Shown: positions 15,848 to 59,895 of the stretch, one piece after another
How the letters are laid out: each line of letters begins with the position of its first letter
Numbering within the stretch: position 1 is the stretch's first letter
Origin: Deltaproteobacteria bacterium
GTDB lineage: Bacteria; Myxococcota_A; UBA9160; UBA4427
NCBI GenBank assembly: GCA_002719955.1
Contig: PBFW01000053.1
Coordinates: 48-64,047, forward strand
DNA length: 64,000 nucleotides
Direction of reading: 5' to 3'
Notes under the pieces: generated by a model
Seen by the model: the letters and a program-made list of their open reading frames with translations, nothing else
Told to the model about the DNA's origin: nothing
The model's database searches: none
Position numbers and translations under genes: made by a program

Positions 15848-16129
15848 GTCGAGTCCGGGCGCACGAGTGGCACCAGCGAGATGAGCTATCGAGGATCGAT
15901 CGAACGATTGGGAGCCGGGCTCAAGGGTGTCTGGGGCGGCGACCCGGGCCTTTTGCTCCGCTCGAAAGTCTTGGCCCCGGATCGAATCACGGGGCTATGA
16001 TCAGCGCTCTCCCGCGGTCGCGTGTAGGCGCTGCCGCGAGGAACAATTTGAAAATCAGTCGGTTGGACGGATTTGGGTCGCGCGACGCGGCGAATTGGCC
16101 CCTCCGACGATCTGGCAGGAGTCGATCTG

Positions 16130-17170
16130 GTGAGCGATAGCCCCCTTTCACGCAACTCTCTGCGCTTCGGCGTGATGTTCGGATATTGGCAGGCCCAGCC
16201 CCCGCCAAATTTCATCGAAGTGGCCCAGGAGGCGGAACGTCTCGGATTTCATTCGGCTTGGACCGCCGAGGCCTGGGGCTCGGATGCTTTTTCGCCGCTG
16301 ACCTGGATCGGTGCGCATACGACTCGCTTGAAACTCGGCACGTCCATTGTTCAGATCTCCGCGCGCACACCGACGTCGACGGCCATGCACGCGCTCACGA
16401 TCGATCATCTGAGCAAGGGTAGGATGATGTTAGGCCTGGGTGTTTCCGGGCCACAGGTCGTCGAGGGATGGTACGGTCAGCCCTTCAGCAAGCCCCTAGC
16501 TCGAACGCGTGAATACGTCGATATCGTTCGGCAGGTCCTGCGCCGCAAACAACCGGTCAGGAACGATGGTGAACATTATCCTTTGCCTTATTCGGGCGAA
16601 GGGGCCTGGGGCATGGGGAAACCGCTCAAGCCGATCACACATCCGCTTCGTGCGGACCTTCCGATCTATCTCGGGGCGGAAGGTCCGAAGAATGTGGCAC
16701 TCGCTGCGGAACTTTGCGATGGCTGGCTTCCACTCTGGTACACGCCCTATCGCGAGGAGGTCTACGCCGAATCCTTGACCGACGCACCGGACGATTTCGA
16801 CATCGTTCAGGGCGTGACTGTCAGCGTGACCGACGACATGGAGAGTGCCTTAAATGCGCTACGTCCGATGCTCGGCTTCTATATCGGGGGCATGGGCTCG
16901 AAGGATCGGAATTTTCACAAGGAGCTGATGGGGCGTATGGGTTATCCCGAAGCGGCGCAGAAGATTCAGGACCATTTCATGGCGGGCGAGCGTGGGGAGG
17001 CGATTGCGGCCGTTCCCGACGAGTTCATCGACGAAATCGCGCTGATCGGTTCGAAGGAGCGCATCCAGGACCGCCTGCAGGCCTGGAAGGAGAGTCGCGT
17101 CACGACGGTCCTGCTTCATGCCCAGGACCCGGCGTCGTTGCAAGTGATGTCCGAAGTCCTGATGGGCTAG
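16130..17170 (+). CDS. LLM class F420-dependent oxidoreductase
   Basis: WTAEAWGSDA, SARTP, LGLGVSGPQVVEGWYG, GAEGPKNV, YIGGMG; GTG start after AGGAG. Confidence 0.9.
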   Translation: MSDSPLSRNSLRFGVMFGYWQAQPPPNFIEVAQEAERLGFHSAWTAEAWGSDAFSPLTWIGAHTTRLKLGTSIVQISARTPTSTAMHALTIDHLSKGRMMLGLGVSGPQVVEGWYGQPFSKPLARTREYVDIVRQVLRRKQPVRNDGEHYPLPYSGEGAWGMGKPLKPITHPLRADLPIYLGAEGPKNVALAAELCDGWLPLWYTPYREEVYAESLTDAPDDFDIVQGVTVSVTDDMESALNALRPMLGFYIGGMGSKDRNFHKELMGRMGYPEAAQKIQDHFMAGERGEAIAAVPDEFIDEIALIGSKERIQDRLQAWKESRVTTVLLHAQDPASLQVMSEVLMG

Positions 17171-27572: not shown

Positions 27573-29234
27573 TTGATTGTGACGATGCGCGACCTTCTCT
27601 TGGCGCGGGCGGAGGACGACTCCCCGGCGCTTTTCTTCGAAGATCAAGAGTGGACTTGGCGGGAGGTCGTGCAGGCCTGTTGTGAGCGTGCCGAGGCCTT
27701 GATCGCCTGGCGCGGCGACATCCCCTCCAATGCGAGCCCCCCTTTTCACGTCGGCGTATTGCTCGAGAACGTGCCCGAGTATCTATTCCTGAGCGGAGCC
27801 GCTGTCCTCGCCGGCGCGACACTCGTCGGAATCAACCCGACCAGACGTGGCGCCGGCCTCGAGCGTGATATCCGTCATACCGATTGCCAGATCCTGATCA
27901 CCGAGGATCGACACGCGGATCTGCTCGAAGGTCTGGTCCTCGACGTTCCGGAGAACCGTCGCTTCGACATCGCGAGCTCCTTCTGGAAGGAATCAATCGC
28001 TGCGTTCGCGGGCGCGGGCGCACCCGACATCGAGCCCGACCCGGACGCGGTCTATATGTTGATCTTTACATCAGGCACGACCGGAGAGCCCAAAGCGGCG
28101 CTTTGTTCTTCTGCTCGAACGGCGATGGCTGGGAAGATGCTCAGCCAGATGCGTGGACTGAGTGCCTCCGATCGCGGCTATCTCGTGATGCCGCTTTTTC
28201 ATTCGAATGCACATATGGCCGGTGTCGCGCCGATCATGGCGGTGGGCGGATCCTGGGCGATTCGCCGCAAATTCTCGGCATCGGGATTTCTGCCCGATGT
28301 GCGGCGCTACGGCGTCACCTATTTCAATTATGTCGGCAAGCCACTGACCTATATCCTTGCGACCCAGGTCAAGGCCGATGATGCAGATAATCCGCTGCAC
28401 ACGGCATTCGGGAACGAGGGTGCGGAACACGATCTTGCTCGCTTTGCCGACCGTTTCGGATGTGAGGTCGTCGACTCCTACGGTTCGACCGAGGGCGGGA
28501 TCGCCATCGGTCGAACACCCGATACGCCGGTCGGATCGCTCGGTGTCGCTCCTCCTGGGACGCTCATACTCGATCCGGAGACGCGCGAGGAATGTGTGCG
28601 CGCGCGTTTCGGAGAGAATGGACGATTGCTGAATTCAGATGAAGCAATCGGCGAAATCGTCAGCACCCAGAGTGCTCGGCAATTCGAGGGCTATTGGCGA
28701 AACGATGAAGCGAACGAAGAGCGGACCCGCGACGGGATCTACTGGAGCGGGGATCTCGGCTATCGCGACGATGATGGTTTCTTCTTTTTTGCGGGGCGCA
28801 ATATGGACTGGTTGCGTGTCGACGGTGAGAATATCGCCGCTGGCCCGATCGAGCGGATTCTTTGCCGAAATGCGGACGTCGCGTTGGCCGCGGTCTATGC
28901 TGTGCCGAATGCGGACGTCGGGGACGATTGCATGGCTTCGCTGATCTTGCGAAGCGGTCTCGACTTCGACGCAGAGGCGTTTGGGCATTTTCTGACTCAG
29001 CAATCGGATCTCGGGACCAAAATGGCGCCACGCTATATCAGGGTGGCGAAGGAGCTTCCCTCGACCGAGACGAACAAGATCCTGAAGCGCGTTCTGAGAG
29101 ACGAAGCGTGGGAGTGTACGGATCCGGTCTGGCTGCGTGATGGTGACACCTATCGTCGCCTGATGGACGAGGACATGAATTCGATCCGATCCGCCTTCGA
29201 AGCGCGTGGCAGGATAGGCGAACTCGACCGTTAG
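27573..29234 (+). CDS. Acyl-CoA synthetase (FadD17/FadD1-like)
   Basis: GINPTRRG, FTSGTTGEPK, NYVGKPL, FGNEG, YGSTEGG, WLRVDGEN. Confidence 0.9.
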   Translation: MIVTMRDLLLARAEDDSPALFFEDQEWTWREVVQACCERAEALIAWRGDIPSNASPPFHVGVLLENVPEYLFLSGAAVLAGATLVGINPTRRGAGLERDIRHTDCQILITEDRHADLLEGLVLDVPENRRFDIASSFWKESIAAFAGAGAPDIEPDPDAVYMLIFTSGTTGEPKAALCSSARTAMAGKMLSQMRGLSASDRGYLVMPLFHSNAHMAGVAPIMAVGGSWAIRRKFSASGFLPDVRRYGVTYFNYVGKPLTYILATQVKADDADNPLHTAFGNEGAEHDLARFADRFGCEVVDSYGSTEGGIAIGRTPDTPVGSLGVAPPGTLILDPETREECVRARFGENGRLLNSDEAIGEIVSTQSARQFEGYWRNDEANEERTRDGIYWSGDLGYRDDDGFFFFAGRNMDWLRVDGENIAAGPIERILCRNADVALAAVYAVPNADVGDDCMASLILRSGLDFDAEAFGHFLTQQSDLGTKMAPRYIRVAKELPSTETNKILKRVLRDEAWECTDPVWLRDGDTYRRLMDEDMNSIRSAFEARGRIGELDR

Positions 29235-29284: not shown

Positions 29285-29878
29285 TCATTGGCAGATCGGC
29301 TGACTCGTCGTGATTTCGGTATTCGACTCGAGGACACAGAAGAGCGGCTCGGGATCGATTTCGTTGGCACACATCCAGGCGGTGTTTCGATCTTTCGATT
29401 CGGCGAATACACAGGCGATGCGATCGGCCGTCGATCGCGGGCGCTCGACGGCTTGCCCCGCGTCCTTCTCCCAGTCGACCTGTGTTCGGCTCTCCGAGCG
29501 TGGGATGGACTGCCAGCCCGTGAGTTCGACTCTGGAAGAACCCTTCGGCAGGGAGGGGACGGGGGCGAATTCGAGGCATCCCTGCGCGGTCGGGTAGAAG
29601 AAGCGAAGTGCGAAGCCTCGGCGACTCTCGGCGGCCTCGAGATCAGCGATTTCGTGCTCACCGATGGCGATATCCAGTGCCAGCGCCCCGGTATCCATGC
29701 CGGAAAAAGCCAGTCCGCGATCGATAGCCAGTCCGAGATGGGGACGAACGTCGATCGCATGAAGGCGTTTACCGTCGTCGAGAACGTCGAGACTCAGGAA
29801 GCTCTCGTCGAGTCCGAGCGCGTTGGAGTTGCGCGAGACGGCTCGGAGATCGGTGCGGTCCCCCGCTGCGCGAGCCAT
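29285..29878 (-). CDS. Hypothetical protein (strand ambiguous)
   Basis: 197-aa ORF mirrored by antisense ORF 29273..29914; no recognised motif. Confidence 0.35.
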   Translation of the reverse strand: MARAAGDRTDLRAVSRNSNALGLDESFLSLDVLDDGKRLHAIDVRPHLGLAIDRGLAFSGMDTGALALDIAIGEHEIADLEAAESRRGFALRFFYPTAQGCLEFAPVPSLPKGSSRVELTGWQSIPRSESRTQVDWEKDAGQAVERPRSTADRIACVFAESKDRNTAWMCANEIDPEPLFCVLESNTEITTSQPICQ

Positions 29879-30368
29879 CAGTCGCGTGGCATGGCGAGTG
29901 TCGGGCGCTTCTGAATCTTGGTCGTAGACGAGCGTGTTGAGCCCGCGCGCTCGAGCGCACTAGCGGCGGATCGATCGGCACCGATCTGCACGAACCATCG
30001 CGAATCGTTCCGGCGGGCGGCCATCGACCCGACTCAATACACTACGCAAGAATTCCCGATCTTCGACTAGGTGTTTCTCGCGAGGCTACATAAAGAGAAA
30101 GCGCGGACGCGCGAGGAAGATCTGCGGAGCATGGTACGCTCGCGATCGGACACAAAACCGTGATCGAGGCGTGGTGGCTTGCTGGCTATCGCGTGCCGGT
30201 TTGATGGCGGTGGTGGGGCGATGGCGAACGGAGGGCGTGCCGCGCAAGGGCGTCGTGGCTCTTTGAGAAAGGCGGTGAACTCGCAGTGATCTCCCCCTTG
30301 GGCGCTCGCAATTCTTTCGTGCCGGGGATTGGAACCCGCAGCGTCGACGCGAGTCGGTCGGGGGGCGC

Positions 30369-30740
30369 ATGAGTTCGCTCGAGGTCGCGGCCAAGGAGCC
30401 CGAGGGTCGATCTCTCCGGCTCTGGCGGGTCGTTCTCTCTCTCGCGGAGCCGGCGGGGGCCCTTCGCGACCAGCCGTCCCACCCCGGTCTGTCCGAGAAC
30501 CTCGTTTTCGAATTCGACGAGGCCTATACGGCCTTCGTCGATCGCTTCAGCACGCTGCCGAGTGAGGCGCAGATGCTCGCGCTCCAGGCCCTTGACACGA
30601 AAGTCGCGGCTATGGTGGGCGCGAAGGATGCGGATTTGTGGACGCAGAGGGCGCGCCGGGAAGATCCGAATTGGGACGATGTGCGATCCCTGGCGACGAG
30701 GATTCTCGTCGAATTCGGCTGGCCGACGATGCACGCATGA
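30369..30740 (+). CDS. Hypothetical alpha-helical protein
   Basis: G-rich RBS-like run upstream; LVFEFDEAY..LQALD..DLWT..PNWDDVRSLA..FGW. Confidence 0.7.
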   Translation: MSSLEVAAKEPEGRSLRLWRVVLSLAEPAGALRDQPSHPGLSENLVFEFDEAYTAFVDRFSTLPSEAQMLALQALDTKVAAMVGAKDADLWTQRARREDPNWDDVRSLATRILVEFGWPTMHA

Positions 30741-30762
30741 AAATTGTGTCCGATTTCCGGTG

Positions 30763-31342
30763 ATGCGACGGCCGCGCTTTCACGTATTCGACTCCGGGGG
30801 TCGCCAAGGAGAAGAAATAGTCTCGACGATCCCCCTGGAGAATTTGTTGTTCCTGGATCCGCAACTTGCCGGCAACTGGGCCGCGATCGTGGCCGATTTC
30901 ATGAACGCCGAATCCGCCCTTCCGGGTTCCCTGTGGCCTCTCGAGGGGCAGGATGCCCACGTTGTGTGCTATTCGATCGAAAAGATCGATCGGACTGCCC
31001 ACGGAACGTGCGATGCGGCAGGAGGCGTGGAAATCGAGGTCGCGCGGGTGGATCAGGTAAATCCTGAACCCCTCTCTAGTGTTGGGTGTCCTATCCCTTC
31101 GACGCCCCAGATGAGGATGAGATGATCGGAGGCTTCGACCCGACCGAGATCATTGCCTGCGCGCTTCGGCCGCAGGGAAGCTGGATGTATATATTGACGC
31201 TGGTAGGTTTCGTCCTGGCCTCGTGGTCGATCGCCCCGAAATGCGCTCCCATTCGCCCCGCCATCACTACGCCATCGAGTTGGTTGGAGTCATCAGCGCT
31301 TCCGGTGCGTTTCTCGCGTGCGGAATCTTCCTGACGGCCTAG
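30763..31342 (+). pseudogene. Probable frameshifted remnant of a membrane-anchored protein
   Basis: Three consecutive protein-like segments in different frames, ending in two hydrophobic helices. Confidence 0.35.
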
Positions 31343-32148
31343 CGTTTTTCGTCCAGCGCTTCGAGAATCATCAATCCATCGTGCAGAGCGCCTGCGTCAT
31401 GGGTACGGAGGTATTCAGCCCCGGCACGGGCCGCGTGGAGTTCCGCGGCGAGTGTGGCTGCACCGATTTCATCCACCCCCCGTCCGGTAATCGCGCGAAG
31501 GAAGGACTTGCGCGAGACGGAGATGAACACGGGGCGGCCGAAGCGCGCACGCAGCTTGGGGATGTGTTGAAGGACCGCGACCGACGCTGCGGGGTCGCTG
31601 CCCAGGAAGAATCCCATCCCCGGGTCGATGATGAGTCGCTCTTCGGCGACGCCGGCGAGAACGAGCTCGTTGAGTCTCGCGTCGAAGAATCGTTGGATCG
31701 ATCCGAGGACCTCCTCAGGAGAGGCCTCGGTGCGCACGGCGCGTTCCCGCTCGAGCAATGAGTGCACGACGACGAGGTCGACCTCGGCCGAGGCGAGGCG
31801 GGCCTGTGTTTCCGGTTCGGGGAAGCCCCGGATGTCGTTCAGCAGGGCCACACCGGCTTCGAGCGACCAGGCCAGGACTTCGGGATCCGTCGCATCGACG
31901 GAGAGGGGAAGAGACCCGCTCCGGAGCGCGTCCACGACGGGCGCGAGTCGCTCGATCTGAAGGGCTGCGGAGACGGGTGTCGCGTCGGGGTTGCTCGAGG
32001 CTGGTCCGAGTTCGAGGATATCCGCCCCGCTCTCGGTGAGGGCGCGGGCATGCTGGATGGCCGCTGTCGGGGCTAGGTAGCGACCTCCGTCCGAGAATGA
32101 ATCCTCGGTGATATTCACTACCGCTACGACCTTCGGGGCGACGCTCAT
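31339..32148 (-). CDS. folP: Dihydropteroate synthase, Sul-like
   Basis: VNITEDSFSDGG, GPASSNPDA, LNDIRGFP, DPGMGFFLG, SVSRKSFL, RTHD. Confidence 0.92.
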   Translation of the reverse strand: MSVAPKVVAVVNITEDSFSDGGRYLAPTAAIQHARALTESGADILELGPASSNPDATPVSAALQIERLAPVVDALRSGSLPLSVDATDPEVLAWSLEAGVALLNDIRGFPEPETQARLASAEVDLVVVHSLLERERAVRTEASPEEVLGSIQRFFDARLNELVLAGVAEERLIIDPGMGFFLGSDPAASVAVLQHIPKLRARFGRPVFISVSRKSFLRAITGRGVDEIGAATLAAELHAARAGAEYLRTHDAGALHDGLMILEALDEKR

Positions 32149-32516
32149 CTCGGATTTCTAGCACGCCCCTCTCGACCCTGTGGTCGAACGTCTCGTCGAG
32201 GGCCTCGTGCCGGAGGTGAGCAGGGCTCGTTCGAACGCGTTAAGTGGGTCGCCGCGCGCTTTGGATGGCACATGGGGTGGTGCAGCAAATTGTATCAGGG
32301 CCCCCTTGCGGAGCGTTCGGGGCGGTGACTCCGAATTTTACATCGCTTTTACGTAGCTGCCCTGTTCGATCGTTTTCCGAGCCGACCGATTCAGCTACAT
32401 CTGCGTTCGCGTCCTGTCTTGATCACGAAGAGATCGGTCGATTCGACAGATTTCGAACAGTTCGTTCGAGCCTCTGCTTCATCAACCGATGCCCCCGCGA
32501 AAGATGATTGAAATCC

Positions 32517-33410
32517 ATGAACGCTGCGATCGACCTCGATAACCGCGTCTCTGCCGACTCTGCGCCCGCTGTCGACCCGGCAGTCGAGGTCTCTCTCGAA
32601 TCGAAGGGAGTCAAAGCCAAGAAAGGCTCGGTTCTCCGATACCGCGCCGATCGTCGCTCGGTCTCGTTCGTGTTGGGGATGTTTGCGTTGCATGCGCTCG
32701 CCTTCTTTCTCGCTCCGCCTTGGCTGGCTGCGATCTGCCTCGTCCCGCTGGCGATCGGAAGCATGTTCATTGCAGCGATCAATCATCACCATCAGCATTT
32801 CAATACGTTCCGCTCGCCGTGGTTGAATCGGATCTACGAACTAGTCCTGGCGTTACAGACCGGCATCAGTCCTTTCGGTTGGGTGCTGCACCACAACCTC
32901 GGTCACCATCGGAATTATCTCAACCAGCCCCCTCATCCGGAGCCCGATGAGTCGAACTGGACTCGCCCGGATGGTTCTCAGATGGGCCGGGTCGAATACA
33001 CGATCGATCTCATCTTGAACCATCAGCTCGACATCTTTCGAGTCGGATGGAAATATCCGAAATTCCTCCGGGCCTTCCTGCTGATGAAGATTCCGCTCTA
33101 CGTGATCATCGCAGTCGCGCTCTACATCAATCCCGTGAATGCCTTCCTGGTACTGCTGATTCCTTCGTTCATCGCGCTCTGCCACACGTCCTGGGCGACC
33201 TACGAACACCATGCCGGCCACTATCCGACGGATCATTACGATGCGAGCATGAATCGGAAGAATGCCATCTTCAATTTCCTGACCTGCAACCTGGGCTTGC
33301 ACACCGCACACCATCTGCGCCCGGGGGTCCACTGGTCGCTTCTCCCGAAGCTCCACGAAGAGATCGAGAACAGGATTCCACCGGAGATGATTCTGACTAC
33401 CTTCTGGTAG
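32517..33410 (+). CDS. Membrane fatty acid desaturase family protein
   Basis: Histidine boxes HHHQH, HHNLGHH, YEHH and HTAHH, plus TM segments. Confidence 0.88.
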   Translation: MNAAIDLDNRVSADSAPAVDPAVEVSLESKGVKAKKGSVLRYRADRRSVSFVLGMFALHALAFFLAPPWLAAICLVPLAIGSMFIAAINHHHQHFNTFRSPWLNRIYELVLALQTGISPFGWVLHHNLGHHRNYLNQPPHPEPDESNWTRPDGSQMGRVEYTIDLILNHQLDIFRVGWKYPKFLRAFLLMKIPLYVIIAVALYINPVNAFLVLLIPSFIALCHTSWATYEHHAGHYPTDHYDASMNRKNAIFNFLTCNLGLHTAHHLRPGVHWSLLPKLHEEIENRIPPEMILTTFW

Positions 33411-34826
33411 ATGACCGAATCCACTTTGCCCACGAATGTGCGATCAGGCTTCGCACGTGTGCTCCACGAACTGACCCAGCGCGATCATACGCAGGGGCGG
33501 CTGCTCGTGTCGATCCTCGTGCTGGCCGCGCCTGCCGTCGTCTCCTCGTCGGGCATGGCGCTCTTCCAACTCTTCGATCTGCGTTTCCTCGGGCAGATCA
33601 GCGGTGAAGCGGTGGCTGCGGCCGGCGCGACGAATCAGACCCTGCGGCAGGTTTTCCAGGTTTCCGCGTTTGGACTCTCGATTGGGATCCAGATGATGAT
33701 CGCATTCGCGGTGGGGCGGTCACGACTCGAGGAGGCCGAACACGTCGCAGGCCAGAGTTTTCTCATCACCGGTCTCCTCGCCCTGCTCGCGATCGTGACG
33801 GTCGGACTCTTTCCCAAGTTCTTCGTCTCGCTGATCGTGAATGATGCAGCCGTTCCCATGGCCGAGACCTACGCGCGCATCACTTTCCTCTTCTTCGCCT
33901 TCAATATGTTCGCCCAGGCGTCCAATGGCATTCTGGTCGGTTCGGGGGACGCGACGACACCGATGTTGATCGGTTTGGCACAGGTCCCCGTCATCATCTT
34001 CTTCGAGTGGGCATTGGCATTCGGGAAATTCGGGATGCCCGAGTTGGGCGTCGCCGGGATCGCCTATGGAACGGCGATCGGCGGTGGATTTTCCTTTGTC
34101 CTCGCGATGTGGGCGCTCTTCAGCGGGCGCAGCCGTGTGCATCTGCGTGCTCGCCACTTACTACCTGATGGGCCCACCCTCGCCCGGATCGTGGGAACCT
34201 CGTGGCAGCCCGCGCTCCAGATGGTCGCACGCTCGGCGATGATCATGGTCTTCATGTTGCTGGCCGGGCGACTCGGCAGCCACGTGCAGGCGGCGTACAC
34301 GATCGGGCTGCGGATCGAGATGATTGCGGTCATGATCGCGTTCCCGATTGCGAACGGCTGCGCGACGCTCGTGGGGCAAAATCTCGGGGCGGGCGATCCG
34401 GATCGAGCCTGGCGGGCGGTTTGGGCGGCAGCCGCGGTCGAGGTGGCGATTCTGTGGCCGGGCGCTGTGCTGCTCTATTTCTTCCGGGACGCCGCGGTCG
34501 CGATCTTCACCAGCGACGCGCAGGTCGCGGCGGAGGCGAGTGAATATCTCCGCTATGTCTCGTTCATCCTCACCTTCTGGGGAGTCTATTTCGTCGCGTT
34601 CCGAACGCTTCAGGCCGCAGGGGACATGATTACGCCGATGATGATCTCACTCGTGTTGGCGATCTGTCTCGGTACGCCACTCGCGATCTATCTGTCCGGT
34701 CGTCCAGAATATGGGTCATCGGGGATGTGGATCGCGAACGCGACCTACTCGGTCGCGAATGCGCTCTTGATGCTGGGATGGCTCTTTAGGGGCCGCTGGG
34801 CGCGCCGAGCCGTAGCGGATCGTTGA
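33411..34826 (+). CDS. MATE family efflux transporter
   Basis: Multiple TM helices; LAAPAV, GSGDATTPM, LVGQNLGAG, AAGDMITPM. Confidence 0.92.
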   Translation: MTESTLPTNVRSGFARVLHELTQRDHTQGRLLVSILVLAAPAVVSSSGMALFQLFDLRFLGQISGEAVAAAGATNQTLRQVFQVSAFGLSIGIQMMIAFAVGRSRLEEAEHVAGQSFLITGLLALLAIVTVGLFPKFFVSLIVNDAAVPMAETYARITFLFFAFNMFAQASNGILVGSGDATTPMLIGLAQVPVIIFFEWALAFGKFGMPELGVAGIAYGTAIGGGFSFVLAMWALFSGRSRVHLRARHLLPDGPTLARIVGTSWQPALQMVARSAMIMVFMLLAGRLGSHVQAAYTIGLRIEMIAVMIAFPIANGCATLVGQNLGAGDPDRAWRAVWAAAAVEVAILWPGAVLLYFFRDAAVAIFTSDAQVAAEASEYLRYVSFILTFWGVYFVAFRTLQAAGDMITPMMISLVLAICLGTPLAIYLSGRPEYGSSGMWIANATYSVANALLMLGWLFRGRWARRAVADR

Positions 34827-45024: not shown

Positions 45025-45894
45025 ATGAAGTTCTGGCAGTCGATCACCTGGGCCGAGACCGACCAGCTCTGCGAGGTTGCTCTTTTTGCGGACGAGCTCG
45101 GCTTCGGGGGGATCATCGGCGCCGATCACGCGCTCTATCCGAGAACGATGACGCCCAACTATCCCTACTCGGAGTCAGGCTACCCGCCCCAGACCGCCGA
45201 GAGCGAATATCCTGACATGTGGACGAGTACGGCGGCGATGGCTGCGGTGACGACGCGGCTGCGCTTCGTTTGTGGGGTCTACGTGTTGCCGCTTCGTGAT
45301 CCGATCGAGGTCGCGAAGCAGGCGGCGACCCTGTCCATCCTCTCCCAGGGGCGCTTCGTGCTGGGCGTCGGTGTTGGATGGATGAAGGAAGAGTTCGACA
45401 TCTATGGCGTCGACTTTGCCAGCCGAGGCCGGCGGATGGATGAGATGATCGCGGTCTTGCAGGGGCTGTGGAGCGGTGACTATTTCGAGTTCCACGGGGA
45501 GTTCTTCGACTTCGACCCGATCGTGGTGAGCCCGAAGCCGAGCCACCCGATTCCGATCTACTTCGGTGGAACGGCCCCCGTCGCTCTACGCCGAACGGCT
45601 CGAGTCGGGGACGGCTGGATCGGGGCCGGGAACCAGCCAGAGGATGTGCCGGGTGTGCTGGCGGAGATCGCCCGGCTGCGTGTGGAAGCGGGGCGTAGTG
45701 ATCAGCCCTTCGATTCGTTGGTCGGGGTCTATGCGGATCCCGATGTCGATCTCTTTCGCAGACTGGAGGACGAGGGAATGACGTCGGGGATTCATCTGCC
45801 CTTCTGGTTTGCCTTCGACGGTCCGTCGACCCTCGATCAGAAGAAGGCGCTGATGGAACGATTTGCCGAGGATATTCTTCGGCATTTCAACTGA
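45025..45894 (+). CDS. LLM class F420-dependent oxidoreductase (TIGR03619-like)
   Basis: ADHALYP, VYVLPLRDPIEVAKQ, GVGVGWMKEEF, GDGW. Confidence 0.9.
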   Translation: MKFWQSITWAETDQLCEVALFADELGFGGIIGADHALYPRTMTPNYPYSESGYPPQTAESEYPDMWTSTAAMAAVTTRLRFVCGVYVLPLRDPIEVAKQAATLSILSQGRFVLGVGVGWMKEEFDIYGVDFASRGRRMDEMIAVLQGLWSGDYFEFHGEFFDFDPIVVSPKPSHPIPIYFGGTAPVALRRTARVGDGWIGAGNQPEDVPGVLAEIARLRVEAGRSDQPFDSLVGVYADPDVDLFRRLEDEGMTSGIHLPFWFAFDGPSTLDQKKALMERFAEDILRHFN

Positions 45895-49603: not shown

Positions 49604-50855
49604 TCGATTCGCCACCGGATCCTCTCGTCGGGCGGTTCCGTCTCGGTGCATCCCCGTGATGCTCTTGATCGTCATGATGCTCTTGCCTGGGGAACGGGTT
49701 CTTGCGGAATGTTCCGAGGAGGGCTGGGCGACCGCGGAGTCGCTCGCGTCACCCCGCACAAACGATCTGGTGGCGGCCGGAGCCGATGGAATCGGGGGAT
49801 CGGGATTCGGCTCGGATCCGGGCGACGACGACGGGATCGGGGGATCGGGATACATACCGGCGGATGAAAGCCCGGACGACGGCATCGGCGGCTCCGGTCT
49901 CTTCGGAACGATCACGGGCTTCGGAAGCGTCTGCGTGAACGGTGGGCGCGTGCGCTACGACGATTCGGTTGCCGTTTCGATCGATGCTGTATCGGCGGCC
50001 GTGGGGGATCTCGCGGTCGGTCAGGTCATTCGCATCAACCTGGAAACGCGCGAGGACGGCGTCTACGCCCGAGAGATCGATGTTCAGCACGAGGTGCTCG
50101 GCCCGATCACCGCGGCGGGAGGCGACGGCATCGATGTAATGGGTCAGCGCGTCTCGCTCGAGTATCTCGCCGATCACGCTCGGAGCGAGATCGAGGTGGG
50201 CGCGCGGGTCGCCGTGAGCGGGCTTCGTCGATCCGACGGAACGGTCGTCGCCTCGAGAATCGTCCCCGCCCCGAGCACCACGCCGGACCTGACGCGCGGC
50301 GTGCCGATGTCGGTCGATGAATCTTCGTTTCGGATCGGTGGTACGCTCATCGCTCCGCTCGCGTTCGACCCCTCACAAGGGTCGGGGTTGTCGGGCCGAT
50401 CGGCTCCCCACCAAGGTGGACGTGAGATCGTGCAGGGATCCTGGAATGTGGAGTTGGGTCGACTGGAGGCGAGTCGACGTGGAGCCTCGCCGGTTGCGTC
50501 GGCCCATGCTCGGCAGGTCGACCTCGAGGGTTATGTCGAACGAAACGAGGCGGGCGTGTTGGCCGTGGGGGGCGTTGCTTTCTCGGTCGGTGAGGGAGCG
50601 GCGACGATCCGCAGCGGCGAGCGGGTCCGCGTGCGCGGTGTTCGCGAAGCGGCGGGCGAGACGCTCCGGTTGAGGCGTGTGATGCGCGTCGCGGAGCGCC
50701 CCATGTTCCGCGCCCTGGATCCGGGTGTACGCCCCCCCCAGGTGCTCCGTCCCGATCTCCGGGGGCAGCGACCGCATCCCCCCCGCCCTCATCGCATCCG
50801 AAGGCCGCCTCCGCGCAACGATCGCCTGCCTCCGAGGCGCCCGCCGCCGTCGTAA
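49590..50855 (+). CDS. DUF5666 domain-containing exported protein
   Basis: Signal peptide; GIGGSG repeats then GTITGFGSVCVNG; L.VGQV, GPIT, VMGQRV, VAVSGLRRSDGTVVASRI; Pro/Arg-rich tail. Confidence 0.85.
   Translation: MMQISRFATGSSRRAVPSRCIPVMLLIVMMLLPGERVLAECSEEGWATAESLASPRTNDLVAAGADGIGGSGFGSDPGDDDGIGGSGYIPADESPDDGIGGSGLFGTITGFGSVCVNGGRVRYDDSVAVSIDAVSAAVGDLAVGQVIRINLETREDGVYAREIDVQHEVLGPITAAGGDGIDVMGQRVSLEYLADHARSEIEVGARVAVSGLRRSDGTVVASRIVPAPSTTPDLTRGVPMSVDESSFRIGGTLIAPLAFDPSQGSGLSGRSAPHQGGREIVQGSWNVELGRLEASRRGASPVASAHARQVDLEGYVERNEAGVLAVGGVAFSVGEGAATIRSGERVRVRGVREAAGETLRLRRVMRVAERPMFRALDPGVRPPQVLRPDLRGQRPHPPRPHRIRRPPPRNDRLPPRRPPPS
49785..49898 (+). repeat. Three DGIGGSG-coding repeats
   Basis: Units at 49785-49805, 49830-49850 and 49878-49898. 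Confidence 0.85.
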
Positions 50856-51009
50856 TCCCGGCGCGGAGCGCAACAGCGCTTCTTCACGCATCGGGGCGCT
50901 CAAGGGCCCGCTGACCCCCGGTCTTCGCCGGTCCTTTCGCATTCGGGGTACTGTCCCGCCACGCTCGCGCGCTGCCTGCGCGCGGCCTCAATTGCCAGGA
51001 GGTCTCATC

Positions 51010-51861
51010 ATGAAATTCGGGCTCATATTCGCCAACGCCGGCCCCTTTGGTCGGGCGGAGGGATTGACCCATCTCGCGCAGACTGCGGAATCCGTCGGTC
51101 TCGAATCGCTCTGGACTGTCGAACACGTCGTCGTGCCGACGGGTTATGCCTCGCAATATCCTTATAGCCAGGACGGCAGGATGCCGGGTTCGGAAGAGAG
51201 CCCGATTCCGGACCCCTACGTCTGGCTGGCTTATGCTGCGGCGGTCACGAAGACGATCAAGCTCGCGACTGGCATCATCATCCTCCCCCAACGACACCCC
51301 TTCTATGTCGCCAAGGAGGCGGCGACCCTCGATCAGCTCTCCGGGGGCCGCCATATCCTGGGCGTCGGGATCGGTTGGCTCGAAGAAGAATTCAAGGCGA
51401 TGAAGGTGCCCTTCGACAAGCGCGCCTCGATCACGGACGAGTCGATCCGGGCGCTGCACGACCTTTGGAGCGAGGGTCCTTCCTCGCATAAGGGTGATTA
51501 TTACGAGTGGACGGCGGTCGAGTCGAATCCCAAACCCGTCGGGGGCAGGATTCCGATCGTGATCGGCGGACACACGAAAGGGGCTGCGCGCCGGGCGGCG
51601 CGTCTGGGGGACGGGTTCTTCCCGGGACAGGCCGACAAGCTCGAGGAATGTATCGCCGAGATCAAGGCGGAATGTGCTCGCATCGGGCGGGATTCGAGCG
51701 AGGTCGAGATCAGCGGTGGCAGCCGGCCCACACCGGATGAAGTGAAGCGTCTCGAGGACCTGGGTGTCAGCCGATTCGTGATCGGTCCCCCCGGTTTCAC
51801 GAAGGATGACGTCGAATCGGGTCTCGAGAAGCTGGGCGACGAGCTCTTCTCGAAATTCTAG
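51010..51861 (+). CDS. LLM class F420-dependent oxidoreductase (TIGR03619-like)
   Basis: SLWTVEHVVVP, YPYS..G.MPG, ILPQRHP..VAKE, GIGWLEEEF; AGGAGG RBS. Confidence 0.9.
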   Translation: MKFGLIFANAGPFGRAEGLTHLAQTAESVGLESLWTVEHVVVPTGYASQYPYSQDGRMPGSEESPIPDPYVWLAYAAAVTKTIKLATGIIILPQRHPFYVAKEAATLDQLSGGRHILGVGIGWLEEEFKAMKVPFDKRASITDESIRALHDLWSEGPSSHKGDYYEWTAVESNPKPVGGRIPIVIGGHTKGAARRAARLGDGFFPGQADKLEECIAEIKAECARIGRDSSEVEISGGSRPTPDEVKRLEDLGVSRFVIGPPGFTKDDVESGLEKLGDELFSKF

Positions 51862-58629: not shown

Positions 58630-59244
58630 ATGGCTGAAGCGAAGAAGTTGGACGCGCCCACGCTCACGAAAAGCGGCATGGGAATCGTCGATGGAATACC
58701 CCTCGAGATCGCCGACGAGAGCCCGGGTGCGCTGCGGGATGCCGTGCAGCTCCTGCTCGACATGGAGGCCATTCGCCGTGTCAAACATGCCTATTTTCGC
58801 TGCATCGATACCGGCAATTTCGAAGAACTCGCCGACTTGTTCCATCCCGATGTAAAAGTCCATTTCATCGGCGGAACCTATGAATGGAAGCTCGAAGGGC
58901 GCGAGGAATACCTGGCCTCGATCGGCCAGTCCTTTCACACTCGATCCGTCGGTCACCATAACGGCCACCATCCGGAGATTGAGATCCTGAGTCCCACCAG
59001 GGCAACCGGTGTCTGGTACTTGACCGACAATATGTGGGTCATGGATCAGAAATTCTTCACGACGGGTTCAGCGATCTACTGGGATACCTATCTCAAGGTC
59101 GATGGCCGCTGGCTGATCGCAGATTCGAAATACGAGCGTATCTACGAATTGAACGAGCAGCAGAAGGCCGAACCCAGGTTCGACTATCACTACCTGGGCA
59201 AATACGCGAAGCCTCCGGCACCGGGTATCACCGGCGGCGCCTAG
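58630..59244 (+). CDS. NTF2/SnoaL-like protein, bile-acid 7-alpha-dehydratase (BaiE)-like
   Basis: DMEAIRRVKHAYFRCID..HNGHHPEI..ATGVWYLTD..GSAIYWDTY..YERIYE. Confidence 0.85.
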   Translation: MAEAKKLDAPTLTKSGMGIVDGIPLEIADESPGALRDAVQLLLDMEAIRRVKHAYFRCIDTGNFEELADLFHPDVKVHFIGGTYEWKLEGREEYLASIGQSFHTRSVGHHNGHHPEIEILSPTRATGVWYLTDNMWVMDQKFFTTGSAIYWDTYLKVDGRWLIADSKYERIYELNEQQKAEPRFDYHYLGKYAKPPAPGITGGA

Positions 59245-59696
59245 CCCGGCTGGCAATCGAAGACCGGAATATTCCGGTCGGTTCGCGCGCGATAGTCGGC
59301 GAACTCGTGATAGTGCTCGACGCAGATCGGCCAGAGTTCTTCCTTTTCGGCATCATCGACCTGGCGGGCGACGAGTTTCATCCGCTTGCCCATGAATTGG
59401 GCGACGATATTCGGATCGGCCTGGATATTTCTCACCCAGATGGGGGATTTGGGTGCACCGCCCTGGGAGCCGACGATGATCACGCCTTCCTTGTGGGGGA
59501 CGTACATGAGCGGAATCGTGCGCGTCTTGCCCGATTTCGCGCCTTTCATCTCGATTAAGACCACGGGTCGGCCCTGGAATTTGCCCATCAGGCGTCCACC
59601 GGTCAGCTTGTAGACGAAGCTGTTCAGGCCGGAGAAGGGTTTGATGAAACTTCGCAGCTGCTTGAACTCTTTTTCGGTCATCGCGTTTTCGGCCAT
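59241..59696 (-). CDS. Deazaflavin (F420H2)-dependent nitroreductase family protein (Ddn-like)
   Basis: GAKSGKTRTIPL, SQGGAPKSPIWVRNIQADP, YRARTDRNIPV. Confidence 0.9.
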   Translation of the reverse strand: MAENAMTEKEFKQLRSFIKPFSGLNSFVYKLTGGRLMGKFQGRPVVLIEMKGAKSGKTRTIPLMYVPHKEGVIIVGSQGGAPKSPIWVRNIQADPNIVAQFMGKRMKLVARQVDDAEKEELWPICVEHYHEFADYRARTDRNIPVFDCQPG

Positions 59697-59895
59697 GCTG
59701 GGCTCCTTCGGTCTTCGATCGTTGTGGCGTGCGCGTGGCCGCCGGGGGATGGAAGCGGCCCCGATCCGTGGGGTGCGCTCTAGTCTAGCGAGGCGAAGCG
59801 GCAAGTCGGTAGTCCCGGGGTGGCTGAAGGGCAGGGACGCGTGGTCCCGGTCACCGTGCCTATGGCCGCCGAGCGGGTGAAGACCGCCCCGCCTG

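Follow-up and report, generated by a model that had tools for sequence, protein, structure and literature searches.

A chromosomal Sul-type dihydropteroate synthase as the predicted sulfonamide-insensitive housekeeping enzyme of a Myxococcota genus

Background

The Sul motif was defined by Sanchez-Osuna et al. (2019, PMC6335563), who also found it in the chromosomal folP genes, encoding dihydropteroate synthase (DHPS), of Rhodobiaceae and Leptospiraceae. According to Table 2 of that paper, the folP of Parvibaculum lavamentivorans raises the sulfamethoxazole minimum inhibitory concentration (MIC) of Escherichia coli from 8 to >512 mg/L and that of Leptospira interrogans raises it from 8 to 512 mg/L; folP genes lacking the motif are reported there to give no rise in E. 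coli. This chromosomal form, FolP*, is older than the clinical sulfonamides. Here we describe a Sul-type folP gene in a 64,000-nt stretch of contig PBFW01000053.1 (GenBank assembly GCA_002719955.1, Deltaproteobacteria bacterium), hereafter the window, and compare it to the chromosomal and plasmid-borne forms. In the literature that we searched, no description of a Sul1-3-type folP in Myxococcota was found.

The structural basis of resistance was addressed by Venkatesan et al. (2023, PMC10328974). They report that a Phe in the Sul enzymes discriminates against sulfas while the binding of p-aminobenzoate (pABA) is retained, that changing this Phe to Gly brings back susceptibility, with a contribution of the neighbouring Leu, and that a Phe-Gly insertion arose in E. 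coli DHPS under sulfa selection. The same paper notes Gly-Phe-Phe in hundreds of deposited DHPS sequences, the significance of which, in its words, "remains unclear".

Results

The gene and its family

The gene is an open reading frame (ORF) of 269 amino acids (aa) with an ATG start at 31339..32148 on the minus strand of the window. It was assigned as a Sul-type DHPS gene (folP, of the FolP* kind) from the ORF list with its translations, NCBIfam, Pfam, an AlphaFold2 (AF2) model and Foldseek. Its translation holds VNITEDSFSDGGRYLAP, GPASSNPDA, LNDIRGFP, FFDAR, DPGMGFFLG, SVSRKSFLRAITGRG and GAATLAAEL, and the HMMER alignment finds these strings in Sul2 (PDB 7s2j), unchanged or with one substitution. 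An earlier note on this DNA, made from the letters alone, had quoted the ORF and these motifs, including DPGMGFFLG in place of the canonical DPGFGFGK; translation and alignment confirmed them.

In order to place the protein among known families, we scored it against named models. The top three were Sul2 (NCBIfam NF000295, 301.6 bits, E 6.3e-90), Sul3 (NF000296, 261.5 bits) and Sul1 (NF000294, 230.2 bits), each at about half of its allele cut-off (575, 475 and 600, respectively). The DHPS equivalog model TIGR01496 followed with 229.9 bits (E 3.8e-68), above its cut-off of 162.6, and Pfam Pterin_bind (PF00809) gave 195.8 bits (E 1.2e-57), above its cut-off of 25.5; the Sul4 model (NF033502) gave 77.1 bits against a cut-off of 600. 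Since the DHPS cut-off is passed and the Sul1-3 models score best while their allele cut-offs are missed, we take it for a genuine DHPS, closer to Sul1-3 than to ordinary FolP and yet not an allele of any of the three. The PDB sequence search gave the same order, with E-values of 2.7e-84 for Sul2, about e-75 for Sul3 and 3.7e-66 for Sul1, the best ordinary DHPS following at 4.9e-44.

For a five-way alignment, sul2 and sul1 were fetched from one plasmid record, sul3 from another, and folP from E. coli K-12 (b3177). The window protein shares 53.4% identity with Sul2, 50.2% with Sul3, 45.9% with Sul1 and 30.7% with E. coli FolP (EcFolP), and the pairwise identities among Sul1-3 are 43.3-51.1%. 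It is thus as far from Sul2 as Sul1-3 are from one another, which makes it a type of its own. The 120 best listed matches in the protein database are 52-100% identical to it, 119 of them at least 62%, with lengths of 257-312 aa; many of these 120 proteins carry one source's label "dihydropteroate synthase type 2".

Motif, active-site residues and fold

The Sul motif with its two-residue insertion, DPGMGFFLG, covers residues 175-183 (codons D175-G183 at 31600..31626, minus strand, by translation and residue mapping), where the alignment gives DPGFGF--GK for EcFolP. Met178, Phe180, Phe181 and Leu182 correspond to Met177, Phe179, Phe180 and Leu181 of Sul2, and Met178, Phe180 and Leu182 share their alignment columns with the Met, Phe and Leu of Sul1, Sul2 and Sul3. 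The ligand-contact residues are aligned as well: Asn104, Ile106, Asp175 and Lys214 with N101, I103, D173 and K212 of Sul1, and Ser215 and Ser52 with S214 and S52 of Sul2, their roles as pterin or pABA contacts being those given in PMC10328974. All 40 family members in the alignment have DPGMGFFLG and the aligned Met, Phe, Leu and contact residues unchanged. The window protein and every Sul-type row have the insertion, which EcFolP and 13 canonical FolPs from this family and order lack.

The AF2 model, built with the 40 family members as input, is an eight-stranded barrel (predicted local distance difference test score 87.9, predicted template-modelling score 0.89) in which residues 179-182 (GFFL) form a four-residue helix. 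The Foldseek search of the PDB gave at least 500 matches, and all rows listed are Sul or DHPS structures with template-modelling (TM) scores of 0.82-0.94. Ranks 1-15 are all Sul2, Sul3 or Sul1 chains (TM 0.83-0.94), and ordinary DHPS structures rank after them (TM 0.82-0.90). Because the two ranges overlap, the TM score barely separates the two kinds, and it is the ranking and the motif that do so.

By analogy with Sul1-3, the two-residue insertion would extend alpha-6, a short helix next to the pABA pocket, and would set Phe180 (Phe179 in Sul2) at this pocket, between Met178 and Leu182; the Phe would then sterically exclude sulfonamides, and pABA would still bind. The enzyme might instead be a working housekeeping DHPS of the Sul lineage that is nevertheless sensitive to sulfonamides, if the motif, though required, does not suffice by itself and drug binding is restored by other positions of this subclade. 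The window protein is at most 53-55% identical to any tested enzyme and the effect of the motif may depend on sequence context, both of which speak for sensitivity. We nevertheless consider it improbable, as the alpha-6 determinants Met, Phe and Leu are all present and invariant across the 40 family members, and chromosomal enzymes from Alphaproteobacteria and from Spirochaetes each gave an MIC of at least 512 mg/L in the table of PMC6335563.

Role in the genome

The source assembly, in which the window is contig 53, is a metagenome-assembled genome (MAG) of 5.85 Mb in 77 contigs, 94% complete with 8.6% contamination. Three Pterin_bind domains were found in this genome: in the window gene, in a 1246-aa frame on contig 8, which by its length we took for a putative methionine-synthase-type protein, and in a protein on contig 56. 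The window gene is the only one that exceeds the DHPS cut-off, and the search for a second, canonical folP that the earlier note had proposed found none in this genome. Both folK (130.3 bits, cut-off 54.1) and folC (315.5 bits, cut-off 162.65) are present. With a sole DHPS above the cut-off alongside folK and folC, the simplest reading is that the window gene is the housekeeping DHPS. In this role the enzyme would join 6-hydroxymethyl-7,8-dihydropterin pyrophosphate, supplied by FolK, to pABA, and the resulting dihydropteroate would pass on to FolC. As it is the only DHPS above the cut-off, we predict that the bacterium is by nature insensitive to sulfonamides.

The contig 56 protein is a divergent DHPS-like paralog (1387-2277 of the corresponding locus, L003, minus strand) that reads DPNLGIIHP, without the Sul insertion. 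It overlaps head-to-head with a PTPS/QueD-family gene (L003:2151-2759, plus strand), and comparable paralogs, 28-31% identical to the window protein, occur in several genomes of the genus. The pair may represent a second pterin pathway, or the PTPS gene may replace FolB.

Phylogeny

Two quick trees, of 106 and 118 rows, and one careful tree of 71 rows were built. We left out five loci duplicating the window or the plasmids, eight exact duplicates, two broken or truncated rows (L058 and L065) and the contig 56 paralog, as well as, in the second and third trees, a decayed copy (L125, described below). In all three trees the window gene falls on the Sul side of the split between Sul-type and canonical sequences, as the check proposed in the earlier note anticipated, apart from ordinary FolP. 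This split has a support of 100 and 99 in the quick trees by the Shimodaira-Hasegawa-like approximate likelihood ratio test (SH-aLRT) and of 100/100 in the careful tree (ultrafast bootstrap/SH-aLRT). With supports given in the same order, the clade of the window's genus has 98 (20 rows), 92 and 100/99; Sul2 with Parvibaculum sedimenti 96, 93 and 100/94; and Sul3 with Pectinatus 96, 99 and 100/99, the last with Pectinatus frisingensis. In the careful tree the canonical sequences from the family join those from the order (100/98), as expected if canonical folP is ancestral there and the Sul type is the replacement.

Deeper relationships are a different matter. In the careful tree two Planctomycetota rows are basal and about 20 Sul-type lineages form a polytomy. 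The quick trees disagree: Sul2 and the Parvibaculaceae are in a separate subclade in one (support 91) and in a group shared with the genus clade in the other (81). Given this disagreement and the deep polytomy, we make no claim of a sister group or donor for the genus clade. The term "Sul2-like" in the earlier note holds for the best-scoring model; it does not extend to kinship, the gene being 53% identical to Sul2 and on its own branch among the 20 or so lineages of the polytomy.

The trees also bear on the idea that a clinical sul gene was mobilised directly out of this lineage. In its favour, no named model scores higher than Sul2, and the quick tree with the shared group placed Sul2 and the Parvibaculaceae with the genus clade among 39 rows, with the weak support of 81. 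The identities of only 53% to Sul2, 50% to Sul3 and 46% to Sul1 are at odds with such an origin, as are the positions of P. sedimenti as sister of Sul2 and of P. frisingensis as sister of Sul3, the exclusion of Sul1-3 from the genus clade (100/99) and the lack of any plasmid record reaching 60% among the 5000 best-scoring. We therefore judge a direct source here extremely unlikely, and the suggestion of a "sul reservoir" in the earlier note applies in a loose sense only, since Sul2 and Sul3 group with Parvibaculum and Pectinatus and not with this clade.

In an approximately unbiased (AU) test, a tree with all 34 Myxococcota Sul-type rows as one clade was not rejected (p-AU 0.636) and exceeded the free quick search by 15.49 log-likelihood units; the group was defined by taxonomy but chosen after a tree was seen. 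A single origin of the Sul type within Myxococcota is thus possible on the present alignment.

Two rows have positions that do not match their titles. The nearest sister of the genus clade (97/93) is L061, a 12-kb contig titled as a Nitrosopumilus sp. MAG, of which a 7-kb stretch has 66% GC. Genomes of Nitrosopumilus are far lower in GC than this, and the row probably stems from a bacterial contig placed in the wrong bin, an archaeal Sul-type gene being improbable. L046, on a 583-kb contig titled as an uncultured Flavobacteriaceae MAG, takes nearly the same position as the Alphaproteobacteria MAG L042 (support 100), and a 12.8-kb stretch of it has 63% GC; either its bin label is wrong or the gene was recently transferred.

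Distribution across taxa

In a first draw of relatives, orthologs with 63-77% identity were found in 22 of 24 other genomes of the genus, one of them an 83-aa fragment at a contig end; elsewhere in the order, all 16 genomes drawn, which represent 11 further families, gave only matches of 32-39%. Over the whole family (68 genomes), 28 of the 30 genus genomes besides the window's own have the Sul-type ortholog, and matches of 45-53% that carry the Sul motif are present in three further genera (1 of 1, 5 of 6 and 1 of 1 genomes of g20, g21 and g23, respectively). The other 29 family genomes, from 15 genera, gave only matches of at most 43% identity; the eight of them that were fetched read DPG[IL]GF--GK, i.e., canonical FolP. 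No genome of the family has both a Sul-type and a canonical folP. As 29 of 29 genomes outside the Sul-type genera have canonical-range matches only, this pattern indicates replacement and not addition.

An even draw of 401 genomes across the phylum gave matches of at least 45% in 21 genomes, all others being at most 43%. The 21 comprise ten genomes of the window's genus (including the window's own), two of g21, five of family f13 and four of family f33, and the Sul motif was confirmed in nine genes of the latter two families. Among species-representative genomes, 219 of 403 candidate stretches encode relatives, of which the best 80 were analysed. By their titles these 80 span at least eight phyla, so the earlier note's statement that chromosomal Sul-like FolP is known from a few lineages proved too narrow. 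Among the 80, the relatives with 65-77% identity are titled Myxococcota or Deltaproteobacteria MAGs (the phylum is inferred from the titles), and those with 45-58% include Rhizomicrobium, Micropepsaceae, Parvibaculum, Binataceae, Azotimanducaceae, Kribbella, Streptosporangiaceae, Streptomyces, Pectinatus, Leptospiraceae, Leptonemataceae and Planctomycetota.

In the two actinomycetes Kribbella sp. (L087) and Streptomyces sp. (L096), the Sul-type gene is a third DHPS, two others passing the cut-off too. A NUDIX gene directly follows it in Kribbella, and TerD and sulfotransferase/arylsulfotransferase genes lie near it in Streptomyces; no biosynthetic cluster or mobile element is evident among the 19 ORFs beside these copies.

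Locus, synteny and base composition

Upstream of folP and divergent from it lies a gene for a fatty-acid-desaturase-family membrane protein (32508..33410, plus strand, Pfam FA_desaturase 101.5 bits). The 359-bp intergenic region between the two (32149..32507, GC 0.579) is the presumed promoter region for both, a candidate by gene arrangement. Downstream, convergent with folP, is a 123-aa ORF without a Pfam or NCBIfam match (30369..30740, plus strand). We compared this arrangement over 26 loci of the genus, which come from 18 distinct genomes (eight are duplicates). All 18 distinct loci have the desaturase-family gene upstream in divergent orientation, five of them across a gap of about 1.5 kb, and a homolog of the 123-aa ORF (40-66% identity) is downstream in 17 of 18. 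A MATE-family efflux transporter gene (33411..34826, plus strand, Pfam MatE, NCBIfam TIGR00797 191.7 bits) recurs at 78-86% identity in three longer loci (L018, L020 and L024), and an AMP-binding acyl-CoA-ligase-like gene (27573..29234, plus strand, Pfam AMP-binding) at 75-87% in six (L021, L022, L024, L034, L037 and L038). Over the 18 distinct loci, the flanking short-chain dehydrogenase/reductase (SDR), ligase and MATE genes are 75-91% identical and the Sul-type gene 64-77%; a pattern in which the gene has changed more than the conserved genes around it while its position stayed the same points to long vertical residence. Of the evidence for a native gene, this synteny is the strongest.

The desaturase-family gene was also considered as part of a co-transferred module. 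This was rejected because none of the 71 Sul-type loci outside the genus has it beside the Sul-type gene; being confined to the genus loci, it is a marker of the fixed chromosomal site and not a functional partner.

One genus genome has a second Sul-type copy (L125, G080:C33:58000-60000). It retains LIIDPGMGFFLGRDPR and a few other recognisable stretches, the rest of its 406-aa open frame being Arg/Pro-rich, unrecognisable and of 71% GC. It looks like a decayed duplicate of the Sul-type gene.

The base composition of the window gene is native: its GC is 0.657 against 0.625 for the window, and its GC at third codon positions (GC3, 0.756) is inside the range of 13 neighbouring genes (0.684-0.785). 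Pfam scans of 68 window ORFs (34 in each of two scans) found no transposase, integrase, recombinase or phosphoglucosamine-mutase family, and hence no family of a known mobile carrier such as the class 1 integron 3' conserved segment or insertion sequence common region (ISCR) 2 with a glmM fragment. ARAGORN found no tRNA genes in the 64 kb, and tblastn against plasmids gave no record at least 60% identical among the 5000 best-scoring.

These results bear on the possibility that the gene is a recently acquired mobile sul gene or that the contig is a contaminant of the MAG. The contamination estimate of 8.6% and the patchiness of Sul-type genes in the phylum (21 of 401 sampled genomes) would fit such an origin. 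It is contradicted by the same neighbours in all 18 distinct genus loci, with flanks at 75-91% and the gene at 64-77%, by the typical GC3 and the lack of transposase, integrase and tRNA in the 64 kb, and by scores near half of the Sul1/2/3 allele cut-offs without a plasmid record above 60% among the 5000 best-scoring. With the 68-ORF Pfam scan, the tRNA scan and the plasmid tblastn all empty, a mobile origin was rejected, and we give recent acquisition or contamination hardly any credence. The earlier note had proposed a non-mobile chromosomal member of the Sul1-3 clade with native composition and no integron, ISCR or glmM fragment adjacent, and it was borne out by the 100/100 split, the composition and the genus-wide synteny.

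Other features of the window

No Rfam family, including the folate riboswitch, matched at the gathering score over the whole window. In 30300-32600, a scan for the sigma-70 consensus found no promoter-like sites and a terminator scan found one terminator-like site, which is not above shuffled sequences. The neighbours of folP are SDRs, CoA-transferases, the acyl-CoA-ligase-like and desaturase-family genes, and MATE and MFS transporters. A 197-aa ORF at 29285-29878 (minus strand), without a Pfam or NCBIfam family, is found in 4 of 18 distinct genus loci at 42-65% identity, which corresponds to five of the 26 loci because two come from one genome. The window also holds many luciferase-like monooxygenases and an F420H2-dependent quinone reductase family gene (regions noted: 16073-17170, 45025-45894, 50725-51861 and 59241-59804), several SnoaL-like and SDR genes, and CoA-transferases. 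This content suggests that lipid or xenobiotic metabolism may be linked to F420 in the lineage.

Discussion

We consider it very probable that the window gene encodes the organism's own housekeeping DHPS, of the Sul type and passed on by vertical descent; it is predicted to confer insensitivity to sulfonamides, and it is immobile and no progenitor of Sul1-3. Identity, motif, fold, clade, standing as the sole copy, synteny and native composition are observed, and from them we infer catalytic activity and drug insensitivity. The gene would have kept a single chromosomal position from the ancestor of the genus or earlier, in place of the canonical folP that sister genera kept.

Several points weigh against this conclusion. 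The tested chromosomal precedents are only about 45-53% identical to the window protein. The genome is a MAG of 77 contigs with 94% completeness and 8.6% contamination, in which a second folP might be unassembled, and the contig 56 paralog (296 aa, 99 bits, below the cut-off of 162.6) might in principle contribute to DHPS activity. FolB was not found in the search of this genome, so that the pathway upstream of FolK is partly unaccounted for; as the assembly is incomplete, this does not imply absence. Two genomes of the genus (91% and 79% complete) have neither folP type, only the long frame and the divergent paralog. In the careful tree, convergence was incomplete, the bootstrap correlation being 0.983 where 0.99 was wanted.

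A broader hypothesis is that the Sul type is an old lineage spanning many phyla, kept because some natural pABA-mimicking antimetabolite favours a pABA pocket closed to bulky analogues, that it replaced canonical folP in whole lineages and serves as an accessory resistance or self-resistance copy in actinomycetes, and that clinical resistance is an exaptation of it. It is compatible with three observations: some lineages have the Sul type as their only DHPS and others have it as an additional copy, its deep branches form a polytomy across phyla, and a single Myxococcota clade is not rejected by the AU test. The 19 ORFs in Kribbella and Streptomyces gave no sign of a selecting compound or of a biosynthetic cluster linked to the gene. 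At present we regard this hypothesis as speculative and improbable.

If the gene is indeed the native housekeeping DHPS, the active-site design behind plasmid sulfonamide resistance would be that of the regular and essential enzyme of folate synthesis throughout an uncultured genus of Myxococcota. With the patchy occurrence of Sul-type enzymes elsewhere in this phylum and in others, this widens the published picture of two families (Rhodobiaceae and Leptospiraceae). Resistome surveys that count every "Sul2-like" match as acquired resistance would miscount native housekeeping genes. That the Sul type extends beyond the two families, and that "Sul2-like" metagenome matches are possibly native, is useful to know, yet would not surprise specialists. 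The naturally diverged set (63-77% within the genus, with an invariant motif) could help to define the residues needed for drug exclusion. No new threat is identified here: the gene is immobile and only a distant cousin of the clinical alleles.

Comparison with known systems

The canonical FolPs of E. coli K-12 and the sister genera share with the window protein the reaction, the TIM-barrel fold, the pterin-binding residues and the DHPS equivalog model. They differ in sequence, the identity being 31% to EcFolP and 32-43% to the FolPs of the family; all of these read DPG[ILF]GF--GK, lack the insertion and lie across the 100/100 split.

Sul4 is likewise a DHPS associated with sulfonamide resistance. 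A mobile sul4 has been reported in a MAG from another class of Myxococcota (PMC12772301), and section 11 of PMC6335563 describes sul4 products as having no two-residue insertion. Unlike the window gene, the sul4 published in PMC12772301 sits in an integron/ISCR module.

The plasmid enzymes Sul2 (7s2j/7s2k), Sul3 (7s2l/8scd) and Sul1 (7s2i; Venkatesan et al. 2023, PMC10328974) are like the window protein in fold, in DPGMGFFLG and in the ligand-contact residues. The window gene, in contrast, is off mobile elements, with no ISCR, integron or glmM fragment, and would be the host's own essential enzyme where Sul1-3 are added copies.

The closest parallel is chromosomal FolP* (Sanchez-Osuna et al. 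2019, PMC6335563), which is also a resident chromosomal folP with the two-residue insertion in the Sul-type clade. Both are the sole DHPS over the cut-off in their genomes, as we observed here for Parvibaculum sedimenti as well. The identity to FolP* is 53% for P. sedimenti and 45-46% for Leptospiraceae and Leptonemataceae MAGs. In contrast to the FolP* of Parvibaculum and Leptospiraceae, the window gene belongs to the phylum Myxococcota and to a separate subclade, its insensitivity is a prediction, and it is paired with a desaturase-family gene instead of having a glmM or ftsH neighbour.

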